A stretch of 64,000 bases of DNA from Usitatibacter sp. (GTDB lineage Bacteria; Pseudomonadota; Gammaproteobacteria; Burkholderiales; Usitatibacteraceae): assembly GCA_049300695.1 (NCBI GenBank), contig JBAQKF010000032.1:8292-72291 (forward strand), read 5' to 3'. Both the position numbers and the translations under genes were made by a program. Below the pieces are notes generated by a model that was given only the letters and a program-made list of their open reading frames with translations, had not been told where the DNA came from and ran no database searches. Shown one piece after another: positions 26,472-34,884 of this stretch (position 1 is the stretch's first letter; each line of letters begins with the position of its first letter).

Positions 26472-27740
26472 ATGGGCGCACAGCCCGGGCACCATGTGCT
26501 CGCCGCACGGGACCTCGAGCCGATCCTGGCGGTTGCGGCCAAGCTTGCCGCACCCTTCGACCTCTCCACCATGTTGCGCGAGGTGGTGAACGCCGCCAAG
26601 CTGGTGCTCGGGGCCGAGCGGGGTTCGGTATGGCTCTACGACGAGGGCCGTGACGAGCTCGTCCTCGAGATCGCCACCGGCATCGATCCGGTGCGCGTCA
26701 AGTCGGGCACGGGGCTCGCCGGCAGTTGCGCCCGCACGCGCACCCTCATCAACGTCCCCGACTGCTACTCGGACCCGCGCTTCGACCCCGAGCTCGATCG
26801 CCGCTCGGGCTATCGCACGCGCTGCATGCTCACGATGCCGCTGGTGGACCACCGCGGCAAGCTCGTGGGCGTGATGCAGGTGCTCAACAAGTCCGAAGGC
26901 ACGTTCGAGTCCGAGGATGAAGCGCTCGCCACCGTGCTCGCGGCGCAATGCGCCATCGCGTTGCAGCGCGTGCGCATGACCGAGGCGCTCATCGAGGGCG
27001 AGAAGCTGCGCCAGCAGCTCGAGATGGCGCGCATCGTGCAGATGAGCACGCTGCCCGGCACGATGCCGGCGATCGCGGGCTACGACGTGTACGGCACCTT
27101 CAAGCCCGCGGATCTCACCGGCGGCGACACATTCGACCTTTCGCTCCTCGATGCGGGCCTGCTCATCGTGCTGGCCGACGCGACCGGGCACGGCATCGCG
27201 CCGGCGCTGTCGGTCACGCAGATGCAGGCCATGCTCCGGATGGCCTTCCGCCTCGGCGCCGACCTGGAAACCGCCTTCAAGACGGTGAACAACCAGCTCG
27301 CCGACACGCTTCCCGAGGATCGGTTCATCACCGCGTTCATCGGGCTGCTCGATCCGAAGACGCATCGCGTCCGGTTCCAGAGTGGAGGCCAGGGGCCGAT
27401 CCTGCACTTCCATGCGGCCGACGGGCAATCCACGCACCACAAGCCCACCAGCTTCCCGCTCGCGGCGATGCCGATCACGACGCTGCGCCCGTCGATCGAG
27501 ATCGTGTTCGAGCCCGGCGACATTCTCGCGCTCGTCTCCGACGGCATCTTCGAATACAACGGCCCCGCCGGCGAGGAGTTCGGCGAGGATCGCGTGAAGA
27601 AGCTGCTCGCGGCCCATCGCGGAAAACCAGTCGCGGAAATCTGCGCCCTGCTCTTCGCGGCGGTGCAGGAATTCGCCGGAGCCGCGCCCCAGGAGGACGA
27701 CATGACCGTGGTGCTCGTGAAACGCGAGCCGGCGCCGTGA
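26472..27740 (+). CDS. GAF domain-containing PP2C-type serine phosphatase (RsbU/SpoIIE family)
   Basis: N-terminal GAF (GSVWLYDEGRDELVLEIATG...GLAGSCARTR...DPRFD...MLTMPLVDHRGKLVGVMQVLNK). C-terminal PP2C/SpoIIE (GGDTFDL, VLADATGHGI, SDGIFE, QEDDMTVVLVK). Confidence 0.88.
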   Translation: MGAQPGHHVLAARDLEPILAVAAKLAAPFDLSTMLREVVNAAKLVLGAERGSVWLYDEGRDELVLEIATGIDPVRVKSGTGLAGSCARTRTLINVPDCYSDPRFDPELDRRSGYRTRCMLTMPLVDHRGKLVGVMQVLNKSEGTFESEDEALATVLAAQCAIALQRVRMTEALIEGEKLRQQLEMARIVQMSTLPGTMPAIAGYDVYGTFKPADLTGGDTFDLSLLDAGLLIVLADATGHGIAPALSVTQMQAMLRMAFRLGADLETAFKTVNNQLADTLPEDRFITAFIGLLDPKTHRVRFQSGGQGPILHFHAADGQSTHHKPTSFPLAAMPITTLRPSIEIVFEPGDILALVSDGIFEYNGPAGEEFGEDRVKKLLAAHRGKPVAEICALLFAAVQEFAGAAPQEDDMTVVLVKREPAP

Positions 27741-28474
27741 CTACCGACCGCCTGTTCGGACGCAGCTACGACTCCATCGGGGCGCTGGCCGACTTCACGC
27801 GCGAGGTCTTCACCCGCGACCAGATGGACCTTCGCATCCTGCCGCCGGTGGACTTCGTGATCGAGGAGCTCTTCACCAATATGGTCAAATACGCGACCGG
27901 CAGCGACGCGGCCGTGCGCGTGAGCCTCACCAAGGTTGCCGGGGGCGTGGAGGTGAGCCTCACCGACTTCGGCGTGGAGCGTTTCGACCCCACGCAGGGG
28001 CCCGAGGTGGATATCAACGCGCCGATCGAACAGCGGCGGCCCGGAGGCCTCGGCCTTCACCTCATCCGCAAGATGGTGGATTCCATCCACTACGACTACG
28101 AGCAGGAAAGCCGGCAGGGCCGGATCACGTTCCGCAAGACCATCCCCGACCGCAGGGGAAGCAAGACGGGAGGCGAGATGCTTCAAATCGATTTCGGCAC
28201 GGACTCCGGCACGGTGGCGATCGCAGGCCGCCTGGACGCCGCGCAGTGCCCTGCCGCCCAGGCCTTCCTCGACAAGGTGCAGGGAACGGTCACCCTCGAC
28301 TGCCGCAAGCTCGAGTACATCTCGAGCGCGGGCCTGGGCGTCCTGCTGAAGACCCAGAAGCGCCTCATGACCGGAGGCGGCAAGCTGAAGCTCGCGGGCG
28401 TGAACGCGCACCTGCGCGACATCTTCGCCTACTCGGGCTTCGACCAGATCTTCGAGATCGAGCCGGCGGCCTAG
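27737..28474 (+). CDS. Fusion protein: RsbW-like anti-sigma serine kinase (HATPase_c_2) joined in frame to a STAS anti-sigma-antagonist domain
   Basis: GTG at 27737 overlaps the phosphatase stop (GTGA). Kinase N-box EELFTNMVKYA, G-boxes DFGVERFD and RPGGLGLHLIRKM. STAS domain from codon 148 with YISSAGLGVLLK (phospho-Ser context). No stop separates the two domains. An internal GGGAGG-N5-ATG lies at 28178. Confidence 0.8.
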   Translation: MTTDRLFGRSYDSIGALADFTREVFTRDQMDLRILPPVDFVIEELFTNMVKYATGSDAAVRVSLTKVAGGVEVSLTDFGVERFDPTQGPEVDINAPIEQRRPGGLGLHLIRKMVDSIHYDYEQESRQGRITFRKTIPDRRGSKTGGEMLQIDFGTDSGTVAIAGRLDAAQCPAAQAFLDKVQGTVTLDCRKLEYISSAGLGVLLKTQKRLMTGGGKLKLAGVNAHLRDIFAYSGFDQIFEIEPAA

Positions 28475-28509: not shown

Positions 28510-29058
28510 GTGATCAGGGACCCCGACGAAACGCTGGTGGAACGCTGCCGAGGCGGCGACCGCCAGGCCCTCGCGGCCCTGATGGAGCGCTACCAGCGCG
28601 CCATCTACAACGCGGCATACCGGGTGCTTGGCAACGGGGACGATGCGGCCGACGTGACCCAGACCACGTTCCTCAAGGTGGCGGAAAGGCTGGACGAGTA
28701 TGACTCGCAATACAAGTTCTTCAGCTGGATCTACCGCATCGCGATCAACGAGTCGCTCAACACGGTGCGCCGCGATTCGCGCGACGAGCCCCTCGAGAAC
28801 GAGGACGAGCTGCCGGGCGCCAACGCCGCCGACCCGGAACGCAAGGCTTACGAATCGGAGCTCGCAGGCCGCGTGCAACTGGCGCTCATGGCGATGCGCT
28901 TCGATCATCGCATCGTGATCACGCTGCGCCACTTTTCCGACTGCAGCTACGGGGAGATCGCGTGGATCCTCGACCTGCAGGAAAAAACCGTGAAATCCCG
29001 GCTCTTCGAGGCCCGCCAGAAGCTCCGGGAGCTCCTCAAGGACTTCCAGCCCGCATGA
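28510..29058 (+). CDS. ECF (group 4) RNA polymerase sigma factor
   Basis: GTG at 28510 is the first start that preserves region 2.1. LVERCRGGDRQALAALMERYQRAIYNAAYRVLGNGDDAADVTQTTFLKV (region 2) and ITLRHFSDCSYGEIAWILDLQEKTVKSRLFEARQKL (region 4.2). Confidence 0.88.
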   Translation: MIRDPDETLVERCRGGDRQALAALMERYQRAIYNAAYRVLGNGDDAADVTQTTFLKVAERLDEYDSQYKFFSWIYRIAINESLNTVRRDSRDEPLENEDELPGANAADPERKAYESELAGRVQLALMAMRFDHRIVITLRHFSDCSYGEIAWILDLQEKTVKSRLFEARQKLRELLKDFQPA

Positions 29059-30833
29059 ACAAGAACGACGATATCCTGCAGCTGATGCACGCGGTCCTGG
29101 ACCGGGAAGCGTCTGCCGAGCAGCAGCGGGAGCTCGAGCAGCTCCTCGCCTCCGATCCGCAGGCGCGCGAACGATTCACCGAGATCGAACAGTTCTTCGC
29201 CCGGCTGGAGCGGCTGCCGGAGGAGGAGCCTCCCCCGGGCCTGGTCGAGGGCACCTTCGCCCGACTGGCGGAGAAAGCGGGGCGATTTTCCCAACCTTTG
29301 GGCGCTTCGCGTGTAAGTGATTTACATGCGGGCGACGTAGGGGCAGCATCGGCCGTCAACATCCATAAGACAACTTCTCCAAGGGATACGAACATGAACA
29401 AACGCAATCTTTGGATCGGACTGGGAGTAGGCGCGGTGGCCGTCGTGGCCGTCACGCAATACGTGTCCGAGTATCCCCCGAGCGGGGAGCAGACGACTGG
29501 CACGGTGGCGCCCGCCCAGCGCTACCGCGCCGAGCAGATCCAGTCGAGCGACGTGAAGCTGGGCGACCAGCAGGTCGCGCAGCTCATGCAAAGCGAGGCC
29601 TTCGAGAAGATCATGAAGGACCCGCAGCTGCGCGCGCTCGCCGCCGACGCGAGCTTCCAGGCGCTCGCCAAGTCCGAAGGGTTCGCCGCCCTCGCGCAGA
29701 ACGCCAACGCGTTCACCGCGCTCGCCTCGCAACCCGCAGCCTTCCAGGCGATGGCGAACAACGCGCAGTCGTTCCAGGCGCTCGCGTCCAATGCCCATTC
29801 GTTCCAGGCCGCGGCCACGCACGCCGATGCCTTCGCGGTGCTGGGACAACATGCGAGCGCATTCCAGGCGCTTGCGAGCGATGCGAAAGCCTTCCAGGCG
29901 CTCGCCAGCAACGCACAGGCGATGCAGGCCCTCGGCCAGCATGCGAGCGCGTTCCAGGCGATGGCGTCGCAGCCCCTCGCCTTCCAGGCGATGTCGCAGC
30001 ATCCGGACGCGTTCGCGCTGCTCGCGCATTATCCCGAGGCCTTCCAGGCGATGGCGGCCAACCCGAGCGCCTTCGCGGCGCTGGCGGCCAATCCTTCGGC
30101 GTTCATCGCCGCGGCGCAGAACGCCAAGTCGAACGCAGCCATGTCGTCGCACGCCGATGCGTTCATCGCGCTCTCGCAAGCCAAGGGCTTCCAGGCGCTC
30201 GCCAACAACGCCCAGGCCTTCCAGGCGATGGCGAACAACGCGCAGGCCTTCCAGGCCCTCGCGAGCAATGCGCAGGCCTTCCAGGCGCTCGGCCAGCACG
30301 CCGATGCCTTCGTCGCCATGGCGAGCAACCCGAAAGCCTTCCAGGCGCTCGCGCTGAACGCCTACGGCTTCCAGGCACTCGCGAACAACGCGCAGGCGAT
30401 GCAGGCCCTCGGGCAACATGCGAGTGCCTTCCAGGCACTCGCGAACGATGCCAAGGGCTTCCAGGCGCTCAGCCAGGCGCAGGCCTTCTCGGCGCTGGGC
30501 CAACATGCTGCTGCGTTCCAGGCGCTCGGACAACACGCCGCCGCGTTCCAGGCGCTCGCCAACAATGCGCAGGCGATGCAGGCGCTCGCGAACAACGCGC
30601 AGGCGTTCCAGGCGCTCGGACAACACGCCGCCGCGTTCCAGGCGCTCGCGAACAACGCGCAGGCGATGCAACTCCTCTCGCACAACGCCGCCGCATTCCA
30701 GGCGATGGCCAACACGCAGGGCTTCGCCGCGATGGCCGCCAATCCCGCCTTCGCGCAGGCGCTCGCGCAAGCCTCGGTGGCGCAGGGTGCGGTCGCAAGC
30801 GGCGCGGTGACCAATTCCGCGATCCAGAAGTAA
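29055..30833 (+). CDS. Single-pass membrane anti-sigma factor with a Cys-less N-terminal anti-sigma domain and a ~390-aa extracytoplasmic decapeptide-repeat region
   Basis: ATG at 29055 overlaps the sigma stop (ATGA). N-terminus LMHAVLDREASAEQQRELEQLLASDPQARERF matches the anti-sigma (ZAS-like) pattern without the Cys residues. TM helix LWIGLGVGAVAVVAVTQYV. About 39 copies of AFQALAxxAx follow. Confidence 0.75.
   Translation: MNKNDDILQLMHAVLDREASAEQQRELEQLLASDPQARERFTEIEQFFARLERLPEEEPPPGLVEGTFARLAEKAGRFSQPLGASRVSDLHAGDVGAASAVNIHKTTSPRDTNMNKRNLWIGLGVGAVAVVAVTQYVSEYPPSGEQTTGTVAPAQRYRAEQIQSSDVKLGDQQVAQLMQSEAFEKIMKDPQLRALAADASFQALAKSEGFAALAQNANAFTALASQPAAFQAMANNAQSFQALASNAHSFQAAATHADAFAVLGQHASAFQALASDAKAFQALASNAQAMQALGQHASAFQAMASQPLAFQAMSQHPDAFALLAHYPEAFQAMAANPSAFAALAANPSAFIAAAQNAKSNAAMSSHADAFIALSQAKGFQALANNAQAFQAMANNAQAFQALASNAQAFQALGQHADAFVAMASNPKAFQALALNAYGFQALANNAQAMQALGQHASAFQALANDAKGFQALSQAQAFSALGQHAAAFQALGQHAAAFQALANNAQAMQALANNAQAFQALGQHAAAFQALANNAQAMQLLSHNAAAFQAMANTQGFAAMAANPAFAQALAQASVAQGAVASGAVTNSAIQK
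29598..30773 (+). repeat. Coding tandem repeat, 30-bp (10-codon) period, about 39 units, consensus GCC TTC CAG GCG CTC GCG AAC AAC GCG CAG (AFQALANNAQ, alternating with AFQALGQHAA)
   Basis: Direct reading of the sequence shows contiguous units without spacers, all in the anti-sigma reading frame. A 68-nt block (30513-30580) recurs at +90 nt (30603-30670) with 2 mismatches. Confidence 0.9.
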
Positions 30834-30849
30834 AGCGCAGCAACTCCCG

Positions 30850-30890
30850 AAGCCGCCGGCCCTGAAAGCCGGCGGCTTTTGTTTGTTTGC
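30850..30890 (+). terminator. Rho-independent terminator after the anti-sigma gene
   Basis: 11-bp perfect stem AAGCCGCCGGC (30850-30860) / GCCGGCGGCTT (30868-30878) with a 7-nt loop, followed by TTTTGTTTGTTT. Confidence 0.65.
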
Positions 30891-30929
30891 TATCCTTCGT
30901 CGTTGCTGCAGTCTTGGGGAGAAGTCTGC

Positions 30930-33878
30930 ATGCGGTCCCGCCTTGCCTGCCTGTTGCTCGCGATCGCCTCGTTCGCCCACGCCGCCGACGAGCCCGATGC
31001 GAGCCCGCTGGCTTTGTCGTACGTCCTCACGAAGGACATGTGCCTCGTGTACCTGGACCCGACGCTCTCCTACCTCGAGCCGCACGCCGTTCGCACCTTC
31101 GCCAACTCCATGGCGTGGCAGAAGCGCACGTGGGGATGGATTCCCTATGAGCCCGTCACGGTCCTGCTGAAGGACTTCTCGGACTACGGCAACGCGAGCG
31201 CGGGAGCCTCGCCGCGCAACGCGCTCACCTTCGACATCTCGCCGCTTTCGCACGTCTTCGAGACGTACCCGGCGAGCGAGCGCATGTATTCGCTCATGAA
31301 CCACGAGCTCACCCACGTGGCGACCATGGACATGTACTCGAGCCAGGACCTCTTCTGGCGCCACCTGTTCACGGGCAAGGTCTATCCCGACGCGCAGAAC
31401 CCCGAGAGCATGATCTACGGCTACCTCACGACGCCGCGCTTCATGGTGCCGCGCTGGTACCTCGAGGGCAGCGCCGTCTTCATGGAGACGTGGATGGGCG
31501 GCGGACTCGGGCGCGCCCAGGGCGGCTACGACGAGATGGTGTTCCGCGCGATGGTGCGCGACAACGCGCGATTCTTCGATCCGCTGGGGCTCGTCTCCAA
31601 GGGCACGCGCATCGACTTCCAGGTGGGCGTGAACGCGTATCTCTACGGCACGCGCTTCATGACCTACATGGCCTATGCCCACTCGCCGGAGAAGCTGGTC
31701 GCGTGGTTGAAGCGCGACGAAGGCAGCAAGCGCTACTACTCCGACAACTTCGAGCACGTGTACGGCATGCCCCTCGAGAAAGCGTGGGACGAGTGGATCG
31801 CCTTCGAGCACGAATTCCAGCAGAAGAACCTCGCGGAGGTTCGCAAGTTCCCGGTGACGAAGCATCGCGACCTCGTGCCCAGGGCGCTGGGCTCGGTCTC
31901 GCGCGCCTACTACGACCCGTCCACCAACACGCTCTATGGCGCGTACCGGTATCCGGGCACGGTCGAGCACGTCGGCGCGTTGAGCCTCAAGGACGGCACC
32001 ATCGAGCACCTGGCCGACGTGAAGGGCGCGATGCTCTACAAGGTGACCTCGCTCGCCTTCGACCCGGACACGAAGACGCTCTTCTACACGAGCGACAACT
32101 ACGCGCTTCGCGACATCCGCTCCATCGACGTGAAGACGGGCGTGGAACGCATGCTCCTCGAGGACCAGCGCATCGGCGACATCGTGTTCGACCGCCAGGA
32201 CCGGTCGCTCTGGGGCGTGCGCCACTCCAACGGACTGGCGACACTCGTGCACATTCCCTACCCGTACGACGACTGGAAGCAGGTCCACACCTTCCCGTAC
32301 GGCGTGGAAGCGTACGACCTCGACGTCTCGCCCGACGGCAAGCTCCTGTCCGCCTCGATGAGCGAGGTGAACGGCGACCAATTCCTCCGCGTCTTCGACA
32401 TCGACAAGGTGCTGGCGGGCGACTTGAAGCCGCGCAGCGAATACAAGTTCGGCGGCTCGGTGCCCGAGGGGTTCAACTTCACGCGCGACGGCAAGTATCT
32501 CTACGGCTCGAGCTACTACACGGGTGTCTCGAACATCTTCCGCTACGAGGTCGCGACCGGAGAGGTCGAGGCCGTGTCGAACGCCGAGTCCGGATACTTC
32601 CGCCCGGTGGAGCTGGGCGACGGCACGCTCATGGTCTTCCACTACACCGGCCAGGGATTCACGCCGGTCGCGATCGATCCGAAGGTCGTGAAGGACGTGA
32701 GCGCGATCACGTTCCTCGGCACCGCGCTCGTGGACAAATACCCGGTGCTCAAGACGTGGCAGGTGCCGCCGCCTTCGACGGTGGACGACGAGAAGCTCGT
32801 CATCGCGAAGGGCCCGTACGTGCCGCTCCGCACGCTGGGACTCGAGAGCTCGTATCCCGTGCTCCAGGGCTACAAGGACTCCGTGGGCGTGGGATACCAC
32901 GTGAACTTCACCGATCCGCTTCGCCTCGGGAAGATCGATCTCACGGCCGCCTACACGCCGAGCGACAGCCTGCCGCAGACCGAGAAGGGACACTTCGAGG
33001 CGAAGTACCACTACCTCGACTGGACCGGATCGGTTTCCTACAACCGCTCGGACTTCTACGACATCTTCGGTCCCACCAAGTTGAGCCGCAAGGGCTATGC
33101 CGCGGTCCTCGACTACGACCACTTCCTGATATTCGACGAGCCGCGCAGGCTCCAGTTGAAATCCGAGATCGCGTACTACTACAAGCTCGACGCGCTTCCC
33201 TCGTTCCAGAACGTTCCCACGACGGCGGACCGTCTCGCGAGCGGCGAGATCGGCCTGTACTACACGTTCGTGCGCAAGTCGTTGGGCGCCGTGGACGACG
33301 AGAAGGGATTGCTCTGGAACGTCGTGGCGGGCGTGAACGACGCGCAGGGCACCGCGTATCCGCAACTGCGCGGCCAGCTCGACTTCGGCTTCGCCCTTCC
33401 ATTTGCGAACTCGTCCCTCTGGATCCGCAACGCCGCGGGCGCCTCGCATGGCGACCGCAGCTCGCCCTTCGCGAATTTCTTCCTGGGCGCCTTCGGCAAC
33501 AACTACGTCGACAGCCGCTCCATCAAGCGTTATCGCGAGTGGTACGCTTTCCCGGGCTTCGACATCGACGAGATCAACGGGAAATCGTTCGCGCGCAGCA
33601 TGGTCGAGGTGAACGGGCCGCCCTACGTATTCGAATCCGCGGGCACGCCCAGTTTCTACCTCAACTACCTGCGTCCCGCGGTGTTCGCCTCCGAGCTCGT
33701 GACCGATCCCAATGACAGCCGGTACCGCATCCGGTACAACAACATCGGCACGCAGGTCGACATGCGCTTCAGCGTGCTTCACTGGTTCGAGATGACGCTC
33801 TCGGCGGGATATGCCGTGGGATACAAGGAAAGCAAGCGCTCCGGCGACGAATGGATGCTCTCCCTCAAGATCATGTAG
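30930..33878 (+). CDS. Large secreted protein: N-terminal HExxH metallopeptidase-like domain, central PD40/TolB-type beta-propeller repeats, C-terminal beta-strand-rich (possible outer-membrane barrel) region
   Basis: ATG at 30930 after GGGGAGAAG. Signal peptide MRSRLACLLLAIASFAHA. LMNHELTHV (HExxH). Repeated propeller-like YDLDVSPDGKLL and FNFTRDGKYLYG. The C-terminal 330 aa have alternating aromatic/hydrophobic strands (IAYYYKL, IGLYYTF, LDFGFALPF, VDMRFSVLHWFEMTLSAGYAVGY). Confidence 0.75.
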   Translation: MRSRLACLLLAIASFAHAADEPDASPLALSYVLTKDMCLVYLDPTLSYLEPHAVRTFANSMAWQKRTWGWIPYEPVTVLLKDFSDYGNASAGASPRNALTFDISPLSHVFETYPASERMYSLMNHELTHVATMDMYSSQDLFWRHLFTGKVYPDAQNPESMIYGYLTTPRFMVPRWYLEGSAVFMETWMGGGLGRAQGGYDEMVFRAMVRDNARFFDPLGLVSKGTRIDFQVGVNAYLYGTRFMTYMAYAHSPEKLVAWLKRDEGSKRYYSDNFEHVYGMPLEKAWDEWIAFEHEFQQKNLAEVRKFPVTKHRDLVPRALGSVSRAYYDPSTNTLYGAYRYPGTVEHVGALSLKDGTIEHLADVKGAMLYKVTSLAFDPDTKTLFYTSDNYALRDIRSIDVKTGVERMLLEDQRIGDIVFDRQDRSLWGVRHSNGLATLVHIPYPYDDWKQVHTFPYGVEAYDLDVSPDGKLLSASMSEVNGDQFLRVFDIDKVLAGDLKPRSEYKFGGSVPEGFNFTRDGKYLYGSSYYTGVSNIFRYEVATGEVEAVSNAESGYFRPVELGDGTLMVFHYTGQGFTPVAIDPKVVKDVSAITFLGTALVDKYPVLKTWQVPPPSTVDDEKLVIAKGPYVPLRTLGLESSYPVLQGYKDSVGVGYHVNFTDPLRLGKIDLTAAYTPSDSLPQTEKGHFEAKYHYLDWTGSVSYNRSDFYDIFGPTKLSRKGYAAVLDYDHFLIFDEPRRLQLKSEIAYYYKLDALPSFQNVPTTADRLASGEIGLYYTFVRKSLGAVDDEKGLLWNVVAGVNDAQGTAYPQLRGQLDFGFALPFANSSLWIRNAAGASHGDRSSPFANFFLGAFGNNYVDSRSIKRYREWYAFPGFDIDEINGKSFARSMVEVNGPPYVFESAGTPSFYLNYLRPAVFASELVTDPNDSRYRIRYNNIGTQVDMRFSVLHWFEMTLSAGYAVGYKESKRSGDEWMLSLKIM

Positions 33879-33885
33879 GACGCCC

Positions 33886-34884
33886 TTGGCTCCGATCGTC
33901 GTAGGGCTGGCGCCCGTCATCACATTCCTCGTGGCGCTGGTCCTGCTGGACAGCTACAAGCTCGTGAAACTCTGGCTCGTGGTCCTGGCGGTGGCCTGCG
34001 GCATCGTCGCGGCTTTCATCGCCTACGGCGCCAATGGCCTGGTGCTCGAGCACGCGCAGGTCGGATTCCTCAATCACACGCGATACGTGGCGCCCCTCAT
34101 CGAGGAATTCCTGAAGGGCGTGGTGATCGTGGCGCTGATCCGCACGCATCGCATCGGATTCCTCGTGGACGCGGCGATCTTCGGGTTCGCGGTGGGCGCC
34201 GGATTCGCTATGGTCGAGAACCTGGTCTACCTCCAGCAATTTCCCGACGCGACCATGGGCACGTGGAACGTCCGCGGCTTTGGCACCGCGATCATGCACG
34301 GCGGCGCCACGGCGATCTTCGCGATGGTGGGACTCACGATGATGGATCGCTCGGGCAAGGCGGCGCTCCGCGCCTTCCTGCCCGGATATGCGATGGCGGT
34401 GGTCCTGCACTCGGCGTTCAACCACTTCTTCCTGTCGCCGAAGCTCTCGACTTTCGGCGTCGCGATCGTCGTCCCCGCGTTGCTCTACCTGGTGTATGAG
34501 CGCTCCGAGAAGGCGCTGGGCCAATGGCTGGGCACCGGATTCGATGCGGACACGGAGATGCTGCACCTCATCAACTCGGGTTCGCTCTCGGATTCGCCGG
34601 TGGGCCGCTACCTGCACGAGCTGAAGGACCGCTTCGAAGGACCGATCGTCGCCGACATCCTCTGCTACCTGCGCCTGTACACGGAGCTCGCGTTGCGCGC
34701 CAAGGGCGTGCTGATGATGCGCGAAAACGGATTCAACACGCCCATCGACGAGGCGACGCGCGCGAAGTTCGTCGAGATGCGCTACCTGGAAGGCAGCATC
34801 GGCAAGACCGCGCTCTTGGCGATCCAGCCGATGCTGCACATGAGCCACAAGGACCTGTGGCAGCTCTACATGCTCGGGAAGTAG
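33886..34884 (+). CDS. PrsW-family intramembrane metalloprotease with a ~120-aa C-terminal soluble extension
   Basis: TTG at 33886 is the first start after the upstream stop, and the start is uncertain. Motifs EEFLKG (EExxK), GFAMVEN (FxxxE), HGGATA and HSAFNH (HxxxN) lie in successive TM helices. Confidence 0.78.
   Translation: MAPIVVGLAPVITFLVALVLLDSYKLVKLWLVVLAVACGIVAAFIAYGANGLVLEHAQVGFLNHTRYVAPLIEEFLKGVVIVALIRTHRIGFLVDAAIFGFAVGAGFAMVENLVYLQQFPDATMGTWNVRGFGTAIMHGGATAIFAMVGLTMMDRSGKAALRAFLPGYAMAVVLHSAFNHFFLSPKLSTFGVAIVVPALLYLVYERSEKALGQWLGTGFDADTEMLHLINSGSLSDSPVGRYLHELKDRFEGPIVADILCYLRLYTELALRAKGVLMMRENGFNTPIDEATRAKFVEMRYLEGSIGKTALLAIQPMLHMSHKDLWQLYMLGK

Follow-up and report, generated by a model that had tools for sequence, protein, structure and literature searches.

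Anti-sigma factors controlled by proteolysis are a main route of envelope sensing in bacteria, and the way in which the outside signal is read is known for few of their ectodomains. In Bacillus subtilis, PrsW acts as the site-1 protease of the anti-sigma factor RsiW (PMC4105308). The Dma anti-sigma factors, reported solely in Bacteroidota, consist of an ECF anti-sigma domain and a transmembrane (TM) helix followed by a long, intrinsically disordered periplasmic tether that leads to an outer-membrane β-barrel in the same polypeptide. A structural point of reference is Gp22, the receptor-binding protein of the C. difficile phage CDHS-1 (PDB 7QLR), the elongated α-superhelix of which is right-handed, contains three helices in each turn, and is composed of 5-14-residue helices joined by 1-3-residue loops (bioRxiv 10.1101/2021.07.05.451159).

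Here, we analyzed a 64,000-nucleotide stretch of DNA from Usitatibacter sp. (referred to as the window), which encodes an anti-sigma factor with an ectodomain of a different kind. It is predicted to be a long rod made of ~10-residue helices, for which a phage tail protein provides the only structural precedent. The features of the locus are listed in Table 1.

Table 1. Features of the anti-sigma factor locus (nucleotide positions within the window; aa, residues of the anti-sigma factor)
Feature	Position	Strand	Description
Upstream partner-switching genes	26472..28474	+	Pfam
GAF-SpoIIE(PP2C) phosphatase gene	26472-27740	+	Pfam
RsbW-like HATPase_c_2 gene	about 27740-28180	+	Pfam
STAS protein gene	28178-28474	+	Pfam
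ECF sigma factor gene (SigW/RpoE-like)	28510..29058	+	GTG start at 28510 is approximate
Anti-sigma factor gene, 592 aa	29055..30833	+	ATG overlaps sigma stop codon; codon pattern compared with Usitatibacter orthologue (L001)
Cytoplasmic anti-sigma domain, aa 1-77	29055..29285	+	RsiW-like, four helices, no Cys ligands
Single TM helix, aa ~112-137	29388..29465	+	Core NLWIGLGVGAVAVVAVTQYV; AF2 helix 112-137, hydrophobicity by sequence reading
Juxtamembrane linear motif, aa 141-171	29475..29567	+	PPSGEQTTGTVAPAQRYRAEQIQSSDVKLGD; conserved, predicted unstructured
N-terminal cap units, aa 172-199	29568..29651	+	QQVAQLMQSEAFEKIMKDPQLRALAADA; family-conserved LMQ[ST][ED]AF..[IV]KDP.[FL]RALA
37 tandem units, aa 200-565	29652..30749	+	Consensus [FM]-Q-A-[LM]-A-x-[NH]-[AP]-x-A
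C-terminal cap	30750..30833	+	(G)F..AMAANPAFAQALA, short polar tail ending in K, stop codon
Intrinsic-terminator-like hairpin	30849..30879	+	12-bp stem, 9 G-C pairs, T-rich tail
Partner gene, 982 aa	30930..33878	+	Signal peptide, HExxH..E helical region, TolB-like β-propeller, C-terminal outer-membrane-type β-barrel
PrsW-family intramembrane protease gene	33811..34884	+	True start probably about 90 nt further in

The anti-sigma factor gene and its coding frame

The repeat-containing protein belongs to the class I ECF anti-sigma factors with an RsiW-like domain. Its gene is translationally coupled to the ECF sigma factor gene, the stop codon of the latter overlapping the start codon of the former in the ATGA at 29055-29058, and the likely start at ATG 29055 gives a protein of 592 rather than 623 aa. 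The Pfam domains matched by the sigma factor itself are Sigma70_r2 (E 8e-17) and Sigma70_r4_2 (E 3e-11). In NCBIfam, it scores 106.6 bits with TIGR02937, for which the cut-off is 42.9, and SigW models rank among its top matches. A profile of 15 N-terminal homologues matches B. subtilis RsiW (5wuq_C) over positions 5-74 with an E-value of 1.4e-8. The four helices of this domain were placed by AF2 at residues 3-15, 21-33, 35-52, and 63-77, the block-mean pLDDT being 85-97 over aa 1-50 and falling to about 70 over the last helix. Further features of the class are the adjoining sigma gene, the ATGA overlap, and the single TM helix, which is preceded by K/R residues on its N-terminal side. The sigma-gene coupling and the RsiW profile match thus bear out the initial annotation, in which the repeat was assigned to the extracytoplasmic side of an anti-sigma factor. 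Two other classes of anti-sigma factors were rejected: with respect to the zinc-binding zf-HC2 type (H-x3-C-x2-C), the segment MHAVLDREA has a His and no Cys, and the Pfam zf-HC2 match (E 0.07) is under the cut-off; with respect to the FecR-type cell-surface-signalling proteins, no Pfam FecR domain (PF04773) was matched in the window protein.

The ORF at 28962..30833(+) is open throughout 29598-30773 in the frame proposed initially. All other frames are open across the array as well, and overlapping spurious ORFs occur on both strands, as had been pointed out, including a 1533-aa ORF at 29322..33923(-) on the strand opposite to the repeat gene. In metagenome assemblies, stop-free repeats of this kind lead to gene calls that are wrong or chimeric, and a related 243-kb ENA contig contains a frameshifted, chimeric one (P0013). 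Both observations would fit an array that is an assembly or annotation artefact, i.e., collapsed or expanded, assigned to a wrong frame, or untranslated, but this explanation appears exceedingly improbable. The longest exact DNA repeat inside the array is 47 bp, and an independent assembly, a Usitatibacter MAG, encodes an orthologue that aligns with aa 101-592 over 492 residues with zero gaps and has the same number of units, so that collapse or expansion is unlikely. The annotated frame of the array is under purifying selection: among 374 repeat codons compared with this orthologue, 243 are the same, synonymous differences number 83 and non-synonymous ones 48, and the nucleotide differences by codon position number 41/25/102 (GC3 = 0.88). 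The third-position peak and the excess of synonymous differences are seen in this frame only, which speaks against a different frame; dozens of homologues share the common architecture.

No second copy was found within the window. Of the partner-switching genes, the phosphatase gene was covered by the survey across loci and is situated upstream of the sigma gene in most β-, γ-, and δ-proteobacterial ones; a STAS gene was seen upstream in one further locus (L009).

The repeat array and its predicted fold

Anchoring on the core A-[FM]-x-A-[LM] divides the array into 37 clear units, of which 33 have 10 aa and four have 9 aa and which are preceded by two degenerate ones, AFEKIMKDPQ and LRALAADAS; the first estimate of about 39 decapeptides agrees with this count. 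The composition is likewise as originally described (A 36%, Q 14%, F 9%, L 8%, and N 7%). At a lag of 10, the residue identity reaches 0.448, compared with 0.173 +/- 0.017 (maximum 0.236) in 2000 shuffles, and TRF detects periods of 30 bp and 90 bp, the latter being a super-period of three units.

The array is nevertheless not plain low-complexity sequence, as it had first been called, since both of its ends are conserved and its units are conserved position by position. AF2 places short helices in the N-terminal cap (172-178, 181-187, and 190-197) and a longer one at 564-580, followed by a disordered tail (579-592); the terminal [DN]P.F..AL element is found again in homologues of all clades. 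The hydrophobic unit positions are strictly periodic. The core positions are conserved, whereas the predicted surface positions vary by clade, being Q/N/H in the window and R/E, K/E, or D/R elsewhere, a pattern that is consistent with a structural rod. Among homologues, 86-96% of units have Pro at position 8, which excludes a single continuous helix, and, family-wide, a helix-breaking Pro or Gly accompanied by an N-cap residue reappears at intervals of 10 residues.

These observations bear on the possibility that the array is a pentapeptide-repeat β-helix or a continuous coiled coil similar to TolA domain II. Identity at lag 5 is slightly raised (0.23 against a shuffle baseline of 0.17, the baseline being measured at lag 10), and the homologue P0008 contains a TolA-like AEALKAEALR stretch. 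On the other hand, the Pentapeptide family (PF00805) gives no Pfam match at E <= 1, the period is 10 residues with no heptad period, the helix breakers recur in every unit, and AF2 predicts helices only. We therefore regard both folds as highly improbable, in line with the initial view that the repeat is neither of the two.

In the AF2 model, each unit folds into an 8-residue helix and a 2-residue turn; over aa 172-561 the helices are mostly 7-9 residues long (range 5-10) and the loops mostly 1-3 (one of 4). This predicted stack of short helices agrees with the earlier guess of a rod or solenoid. The confidence of the model is moderate overall (mean pLDDT 67, pTM 0.42), the block-mean pLDDT being 77-86 over aa 210-360, 76-83 over aa 490-570, and below 50 over aa 405-437. 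The best PDB sequence match of the window protein is Gp22 (7QLR; phmmer E 6.3e-8, 35.9 bits), and 300 shuffles of Gp22 score at most 5.2 bits. The same structure ranks first in Foldseek (E 2.8e-3, probability 1.0), with a global TM-score of only 0.23. The Gp22 sequence shows periodicity at lags 10, 20, and 30, and both proteins are organized in units of ~10 residues with the logic A-N-N-x-x-A-[MF]-x-x-[IL]. Moreover, the helix and loop lengths in Gp22 match the predicted 8+2 pattern, and its three helices per turn may have a counterpart in the 3-unit super-period of the array. Given short predicted helices and loops and a detectable similarity in sequence and fold, the array quite probably represents a stacked short-helix rod of the Gp22-type superhelix, within a module that forms an autonomous family. 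Of the initial statement that the repeat belongs to no recognised named family, the part concerning databases holds, as none exists in Pfam or NCBIfam, whereas a precedent with a solved short-helix superhelix is provided by Gp22.

An alternative role for such a superhelix is that of a ligand-binding groove of the armadillo or STI1/DP-like type, which would accept extended or hydrophobic peptides, such as unassembled outer-membrane proteins or lipoproteins, or a polymer, so that the ligand rather than contact with the outer-membrane partner would control proteolysis. Phe and Met are abundant in the units, the Foldseek matches next after 7QLR are β-catenin armadillo domains, and Pfam and NCBIfam searches with the window protein and five homologues return summed weak matches (PMG, UBQLN1, STI1-HOP_DP, XPC-binding, DUF3192, and others). 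For the homologue P0029, the STI1-type score reaches 43.5 bits (cut-off 29.1), by summed weak stretches only; the window protein gives E 0.23 for STI1/HOP DP (PF17830) and 0.002 for ubiquilin (PF23195), both under the cut-offs and with no stretch at E <= 1. Since no domain, and no STI1 stretch, is significant alone, these matches were read as compositional or periodic resemblance. A groove is also difficult to reconcile with predicted surface positions that change between clades from uncharged Q/N/H to R/E or D/R, which is unusual for a specific binding site, and with conserved positions that are those expected to form the core. We consider this reading unlikely.

A flexible, disordered low-complexity spacer or degradation bait, with no function beyond being trimmed by periplasmic proteases, is more improbable still, although the array has an extreme composition, with 36% Ala and 21% Gln+Asn, the pLDDT of the AF2 model falls below 50 over aa 405-437, and two proteases, putative or confirmed, are encoded next door. 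It is contradicted by the unit-by-unit conservation relative to the orthologue, which extends over 492 residues free of indels, by the conserved cap units and the strict periodicity of hydrophobic positions, by the length of 418-432 aa maintained in 14 sphingomonad loci at a median identity of 62%, and by the folded, solved Gp22, which shares the logic of the unit.

Between the TM helix and the predicted rod lies the juxtamembrane signature of the family, GTVAPAQRYR..DVKLGD. Positions P141, G149, T150, P153, A154, R156, Y157, D166, V167, and D171 are invariant or nearly so, and the AF2 pLDDT of the motif is below 50. Invariance combined with predicted disorder is expected of a cleavage or docking site, and the motif is a candidate for a site of protease cleavage or of partner docking.

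Distribution of the module and its conserved neighbors

The module comprising the TM helix, the juxtamembrane motif, and the repeat is an autonomous family that is not specific to anti-sigma factors. A 104-aa query containing the motif retrieves 919 cluster representatives and 104 genome loci, the genome scan being based on a 7-sequence motif alignment. The family, with units of 9 or 10 residues, is found in soil and sediment α-, β-, γ-, and δ-proteobacteria, in which it has remained unannotated. In most loci the repeat domain is a stand-alone TM protein, with a separate anti-sigma gene (as in Woeseiaceae) or with no sigma gene nearby, and sphingomonads contain the three-gene core alone. The fusion to an anti-sigma domain is confined to Usitatibacter-like lineages; it is present in Usitatibacter, other Burkholderiales, Anaeromyxobacter (a MAG), and one δ-proteobacterial MAG. 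Rod length varies between 172 and 506 aa among clades and is conserved within them, e.g., in the 14 sphingomonad loci mentioned above (each species being represented by one genome in the collection searched). This variation argues against a single periplasm-spanning length, and the idea of a universal ruler is not supported across clades. Length or tension sensing and polymer binding, further roles that had been suggested initially, are conjectural. The module is present in S. edaphi, S. hankyongi, URHD0057, and RB1R13, cultured Sphingomonas strains in which it could be studied.

Directly downstream of the repeat gene, 69 of 70 loci contain the gene of a partner protein of ~980 aa. The window partner has a Pfam Omp85_2 match, and Foldseek matches its AF2 model to TolB (E 4e-8) and BamA (8qn4_A), while a PDB sequence search with all 982 aa yields only weak matches to lactonase-type propellers. 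Residues H125, E126, H129, and E179 are invariant in an alignment of 30 sequences that share 62-88% identity with the window partner, and the HExxH region has a low AF2 pLDDT. No peptidase family of Pfam was matched by the N-terminal 257 aa, and the label of putative metalloprotease derives from the invariant HExxH..E. At least 5,979 partner proteins were retrieved, and all of the listed best matches that have a source name are called "hypothetical protein."

The terminator-like hairpin is situated between the anti-sigma and partner genes and recurs in three other Usitatibacter genomes with the stem kept and the loop variable; its position counts against a mechanism involving the three genes. 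A conserved element upstream of the partner gene, TTGCTATCCTTCG, is a candidate promoter.

The gene of the PrsW-family protease (PF13367, E 3.3e-20, 72.9 bits) follows the partner gene in 27 of the 28 loci with enough DNA, and a sigma gene precedes the repeat gene in 36 of 66. The anti-sigma factor is thus associated with a PrsW-family protease, as in SigW-type, PrsW-initiated proteolysis. The suggestion that the repeat serves as protease bait gains contextual support from these conserved neighbors, PrsW and the protein with the invariant HExxH. No description of the module was found in the literature on PrsW, anti-sigma factors, Omp85 and propeller proteins, ECF classification, or STI1 domains and the periplasm.

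Proposed mechanism and comparison with known systems

The explanation that best accounts for the locus, a capped rod combined with proteolytic release of the sigma factor, stands at roughly an even chance in our judgment. The rod would be tethered to the inner membrane via the invariant, unstructured juxtamembrane motif. Each unit of ~10 residues, [FM]-x-A-[LM]-A-x-[NSDH]-[PA]-x-A, would form one short helix starting with the N-cap residue, with the F/M and L/M side chains packed inward, and ~39 such helices would be stacked into an elongated superhelix like that of Gp22, the first and the last units capping the rod. It would cross the periplasm to an outer-membrane partner, the propeller and the HExxH domain of which would be on the periplasmic side, and the intact or engaged rod would shield the juxtamembrane motif. 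Upon envelope perturbation, the HExxH partner and/or PrsW would cleave the anti-sigma protein at site 1 (cf. B. subtilis RsiW), and a site-2 protease would then remove the TM stub. In Usitatibacter, with its anti-sigma domain fused to the rod, this cleavage would free the SigW-like ECF sigma factor. The signalling part of the model, proteolysis involving the rod, the HExxH partner, and PrsW, is put forward tentatively. The low pLDDT over aa 405-437, the TM-score of 0.23 to 7QLR, and the lack of a Pfam peptidase in the partner were counted against the proposed mechanism.

Because the sphingomonad module is not linked to any sigma factor, release of such a factor cannot be the ancestral output. 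A broader and rather doubtful conjecture is that the repeat protein, the HExxH/propeller/barrel protein, and PrsW constitute an unrecognised trans-envelope surveillance device. It would be a semi-rigid, α-superhelical ruler, anchored in the inner membrane and docked on the periplasm-facing protease and propeller of the outer-membrane partner, in which loss or distortion of the contact, through changed envelope spacing or outer-membrane damage, would expose the juxtamembrane motif to PrsW; some lineages would have linked this device to gene regulation by the RsiW-like fusion. What the module suggests is a SigW pathway in a Gram-negative, PrsW-linked version that includes a component in the outer membrane.

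The resemblance to the B. subtilis SigW-RsiW-PrsW system includes the RsiW match of the N-terminal domain (5WUQ), a sigma factor scoring best against SigW/RpoE-type models, the presence of a PrsW-family protease, and a single-pass anti-sigma factor with its C-terminus outside the cytoplasm. The differences are that the host is Gram-negative, the anti-sigma domain has no zinc-binding cysteines, and cleavage by PrsW is putative. The PrsW gene is linked here to the anti-sigma gene, an arrangement not known from B. subtilis. A repeat rod of ~430 aa forms the ectodomain, whereas the extracytoplasmic part of RsiW is, to our knowledge, much shorter and non-repetitive, and the locus adds an outer-membrane partner with HExxH, propeller, and barrel.

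With the Dma proteins the locus shares the concept of trans-envelope anti-sigma signalling, including the order of anti-sigma domain, TM helix, and long periplasmic element toward an outer-membrane β-barrel. Assignment to the Dma type was rejected, as the 592-aa window protein contains no barrel, which resides in the 982-aa neighbor, and the Dma tether is disordered, whereas that of the window is a predicted folded solenoid.

Gp22 differs from the window protein in being a tail protein of a phage that infects a Gram-positive bacterium. It is dimeric, has an L shape, and contains a hairpin insertion as well as a C-terminal β-sandwich that binds Mg. It has no TM helix, juxtamembrane motif, or anti-sigma domain, all three of which are present in the window protein. 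The repeats of Gp22 are far more degenerate (lag-10 identity 0.12-0.22 versus 0.45), and the similarity may reflect either homology or convergence. The armadillo and STI1/DP solenoids are likewise superhelices of short helices, as reflected in the β-catenin matches of Foldseek and the weak Pfam matches to STI1-HOP_DP and UBQLN1. However, the armadillo unit is about 42 residues long and consists of three unequal helices, compared with ~10 residues per unit here, and STI1/DP domains are small and discrete, whereas the array passes no family threshold via an individual domain.

Coding status and architecture of the repeat protein

The repeat array is a coding sequence and no artefact. The initial annotation had placed about 39 tandem decapeptides at positions 29598-30773, and this stretch is in frame, corresponding to residues 182-573 of a 592-aa protein. 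The open reading frame containing the array spans 28962..30833 on the forward strand; the most likely start is the ATG at 29055, which shares bases with the stop codon of the ECF sigma gene upstream (cccgcATGAac). The proposed number of units also holds, with 37 units (33 of 10 residues and 4 of 9) anchored on an A-[FM]-x-A-[LM] core and two degenerate units preceding them. The unit consensus is F-Q-A-L-A-x-N-A-x-A, with F at position 1 in 85% of units, L or M at position 4 in 94%, and P at position 8 in 24%. Identity at lag 10 is 0.448, compared with 0.173 +/- 0.017 in shuffled sequence, and TRF reports periods of 30 and 90 bp.

The array matches that of the nearest relative found, a Usitatibacter metagenome-assembled genome (MAG) whose sigma and partner proteins are 87% identical to those of the window: the orthologues align over residues 101-592 with zero gaps. 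A Usitatibacter-like betaproteobacterium is accordingly the probable source of the window. Within 374 repeat codons, 83 synonymous and 48 non-synonymous differences were counted, and the nucleotide differences at codon positions 1, 2, and 3 number 41, 25, and 102, respectively (GC3 = 0.88). The longest exact DNA repeat internal to the gene is 47 bp. The overlapping spurious frames noted on both strands are present and are attributed to the stop-poor, GC-rich repeat. The 1533-aa open frame at 29322-33923 on the reverse strand, which crosses the repeat and partner genes, was rejected as a GC-rich artefact lacking homology and codon-position support. A frameshifted, chimeric 858-aa gene call (P0013) on a 243-kb ENA contig from a related Usitatibacter-like genome starts in the anti-sigma gene, changes frame within the repeat, and continues into the partner gene; since the stop-free repeat masks indel errors, metagenomic annotations of this family are unreliable. 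Short fragments are numerous among the family's entries in the protein library and may stem from breakage at the repeat or just from short contigs.

Features of the repeat protein and its neighborhood (aa, residues of the 592-aa protein; other positions refer to the window)
Feature	Position	Strand	Description
Partner-switching set	26472-28474	+	GAF-SpoIIE/PP2C phosphatase, RsbW-like HATPase_c_2, STAS; directly upstream of the ECF sigma gene
Anti-sigma domain	aa 1-77		Profile of 15 homologous N-termini matches RsiW of B. subtilis (5WUQ), E 1.4e-8
TM helix	aa 112-137		
Juxtamembrane motif	aa 141-171		PPSGEQTTGTVAPAQRYRAEQIQSSDVKLGD
N-terminal cap units	aa 172-199		Conserved
Repeat array	aa 200-565		
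C-terminus			Conserved cap [DN]P.F..AL, then short polar tail
Terminator-like hairpin	30849-30879		Strong; immediately 3' of the anti-sigma stop, before the partner gene
Partner gene	30930-33878	+	982-aa protein
PrsW-family protease gene	33811-34884	+	

The anti-sigma domain is predicted by AF2 to form four helices (block-mean pLDDT 85-97 for residues 1-50) and, lacking Cys ligands, is not of the zinc-binding type. The juxtamembrane motif shows the greatest conservation anywhere in the family, with R156, Y157, and D171 invariant, and despite this conservation is unstructured in the AF2 prediction (pLDDT <50). Neither Pfam nor NCBIfam has a model for this motif or for the repeat, in agreement with the initial annotation, which did not recognize the latter as a named repeat family.

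Predicted fold and spread of the repeat family

Structure prediction of the repeat region (AF2, input alignment of 27 sequences) assigns to every unit an 8-residue helix followed by a 2-residue turn. Block-mean pLDDT values are 77-86 for residues 210-360 and 76-83 for residues 490-570, and are low for residues 405-437 (overall mean 67). The array failed the membership tests for a pentapeptide repeat, a coiled coil, and an STI1/DP domain, the first two having been doubted from the outset. The sole significant sequence match in the PDB is Gp22, the receptor-binding protein of Clostridioides difficile phage CDHS-1 (7QLR, E 6.3e-8), which is also the top Foldseek match, with armadillo proteins ranking below. 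The match is not compositional, since its score of 35.9 bits compares with at most 5.2 bits in 300 shuffles. Gp22 is itself periodic at lags 10, 20, and 30, with units that follow the same logic (ANNTTAMGII, ANNAQAMSTV). In its published description, helices of 5-14 residues joined by loops of 1-3 residues wind into a right-handed alpha-helical superhelix, three to the turn (bioRxiv 10.1101/2021.07.05.451159). Further matches in the viral structure library are phage tail-fibre proteins and haloarchaeal phage 'repeat-containing capsid' proteins.

The repeat domain forms an autonomous family with a wide distribution. A 104-aa query holding the TM helix and the motif retrieved 919 representatives of 50%-identity clusters at E <= 1e-3 (245 at E <= 1e-10), and a genome scan yielded 104 confirmed loci, 80 of which were kept. 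Their hosts are Usitatibacter, other Burkholderiales, Sphingomonas and Sphingomicrobium (cultured strains included), Woeseiaceae, other Gammaproteobacteria, Anaeromyxobacter, and a delta-proteobacterial MAG. Common to all are the TM helix, the motif, the cap, and 25-49 units. Units of 10 residues occur in alpha-, beta-, and delta-proteobacteria (FRAALAxPEA, MSALARSPEA, FxALAANAEA), and units of 9 in Woeseiaceae and gammaproteobacterial loci (L009, L022, L033, L038, L063, and others; FARALGNAD, VRDAFANAA, FSMLAADEN). Within one array the 9-residue units hardly differ from each other (lag-9 identity up to 0.88), pointing to recent homogenization, whereas the units of the window are diverged, with position-by-position conservation. 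Core positions of the unit are kept, and predicted surface positions are wholly different from clade to clade.

Ectodomain length is conserved within clades and ranges from 172 to 506 aa between them. Among sphingomonads (L011-L054), each species being represented by one genome in the collection searched, it is 418-432 aa in 14 loci (median identity 62%) and 470-488 aa in a second class. Both classes are narrow despite identities as low as 41%, and the gap of approximately 40-55 residues between them equals roughly four to five 10-residue units.

Gene neighborhood and partner protein

Among the 70 loci with enough DNA, a homologue of the partner gene (46-87% identity) lies directly downstream of the repeat gene in 69 and directly upstream in one (L010). 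A PrsW-family protease gene comes next in 27 of 28 loci; that of the window (PF13367, 72.9 bits) overlaps or abuts the end of the 982-aa gene and shows EEFLK and HSAFNH motifs by eye. Across alpha-, beta-, gamma-, and delta-proteobacterial loci, PrsW keeps its position behind the partner gene, including loci that lack a nearby sigma or anti-sigma gene. An upstream ECF sigma gene was found in 36 of 66 loci. Only 8 loci, from Usitatibacter, other Burkholderiales, Anaeromyxobacter, and the delta-proteobacterial MAG, encode a repeat protein with the anti-sigma domain fused to it. In Woeseiaceae and other Gammaproteobacteria the anti-sigma factor has a gene of its own (265 aa), located between the sigma and repeat genes, and sphingomonads have the three-gene core alone. 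A Burkholderiales MAG (JANNKG01) carries two paralogous modules: an anti-sigma fusion behind a sigma gene (L008), and a stand-alone repeat protein (L010) in the inverted order of partner gene, repeat gene, and PrsW. A sphingomonad-type module (repeat gene, barrel-type partner, PrsW) was also seen in a MAG labelled 'Bacillota bacterium' (L042, JBLNCZ010000024.1); an outer-membrane barrel being unexpected in a monoderm, this label is probably a binning or taxonomy error.

In most beta-, gamma-, and delta-proteobacterial loci the sigma gene is likewise preceded by the phosphatase gene, and L009, a 9-residue-unit locus, has a STAS gene; the partner-switching set points to an additional input to this sigma factor from the cytoplasm. 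The hairpin has a conserved stem and a variable loop in three other Usitatibacter genomes. Between it and the partner ATG (to 30929) lie a conserved TTGCTATCC(T)TCG element and a GGGGAG Shine-Dalgarno-like sequence, and the whole region 30849-30929 may act as an attenuator plus internal promoter.

Homologues of the partner number at least 5,979 at E <= 1e-20; among the 120 best matches listed, all those with a source name are called 'hypothetical protein'. Its AF2 model (mean pLDDT 70) comprises a signal peptide, a helical region, a propeller (residues ~310-585), and a C-terminal beta-barrel (residues 626-981), with Foldseek matches to TolB (E 4e-8) and BamA and a Pfam match to Omp85_2. Residues H125, E126, H129, and E179 (HExxH..E) are invariant in an alignment of 30 sequences that share 62-88% identity with the window protein; this region has low pLDDT and matches no peptidase family in Pfam.

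Proposed mechanism and known systems

In B. subtilis, RsiW is cut at site 1 by PrsW and trimmed by further proteases, after which RasP cuts it within the membrane and SigW is freed (PMC4105308). The window genetically links an RsiW-like domain, a SigW-like sigma factor, and PrsW, with a rod as ectodomain. The most economical reading, drawn from anatomy and linkage, is that the rod, anchored in the inner membrane, would reach the outer-membrane partner at its propeller and HExxH domains in the periplasm, and that the disordered, invariant juxtamembrane motif would be the site of cleavage or docking. Proteolysis of the repeat protein would be the core event of the module, which the anti-sigma fusion of Usitatibacter would turn into sigma release. 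Against this reading stand the sphingomonad module, which exists without a sigma gene, the difference in rod length between clades, and the conserved terminator-like hairpin that stands between the anti-sigma and partner genes.

No description of the module was found in the literature searched. We rate the repeat protein as a proteolysis-controlled ECF anti-sigma factor with a new type of ectodomain, within an undescribed envelope module. Its nearest structural precedent is Gp22, its nearest functional precedent SigW-RsiW-PrsW, and its nearest conceptual analogue the Bacteroides Dma family, in which a single chain runs from an anti-sigma domain and TM helix through a disordered tether to a barrel; each of the three covers the present case only in part.
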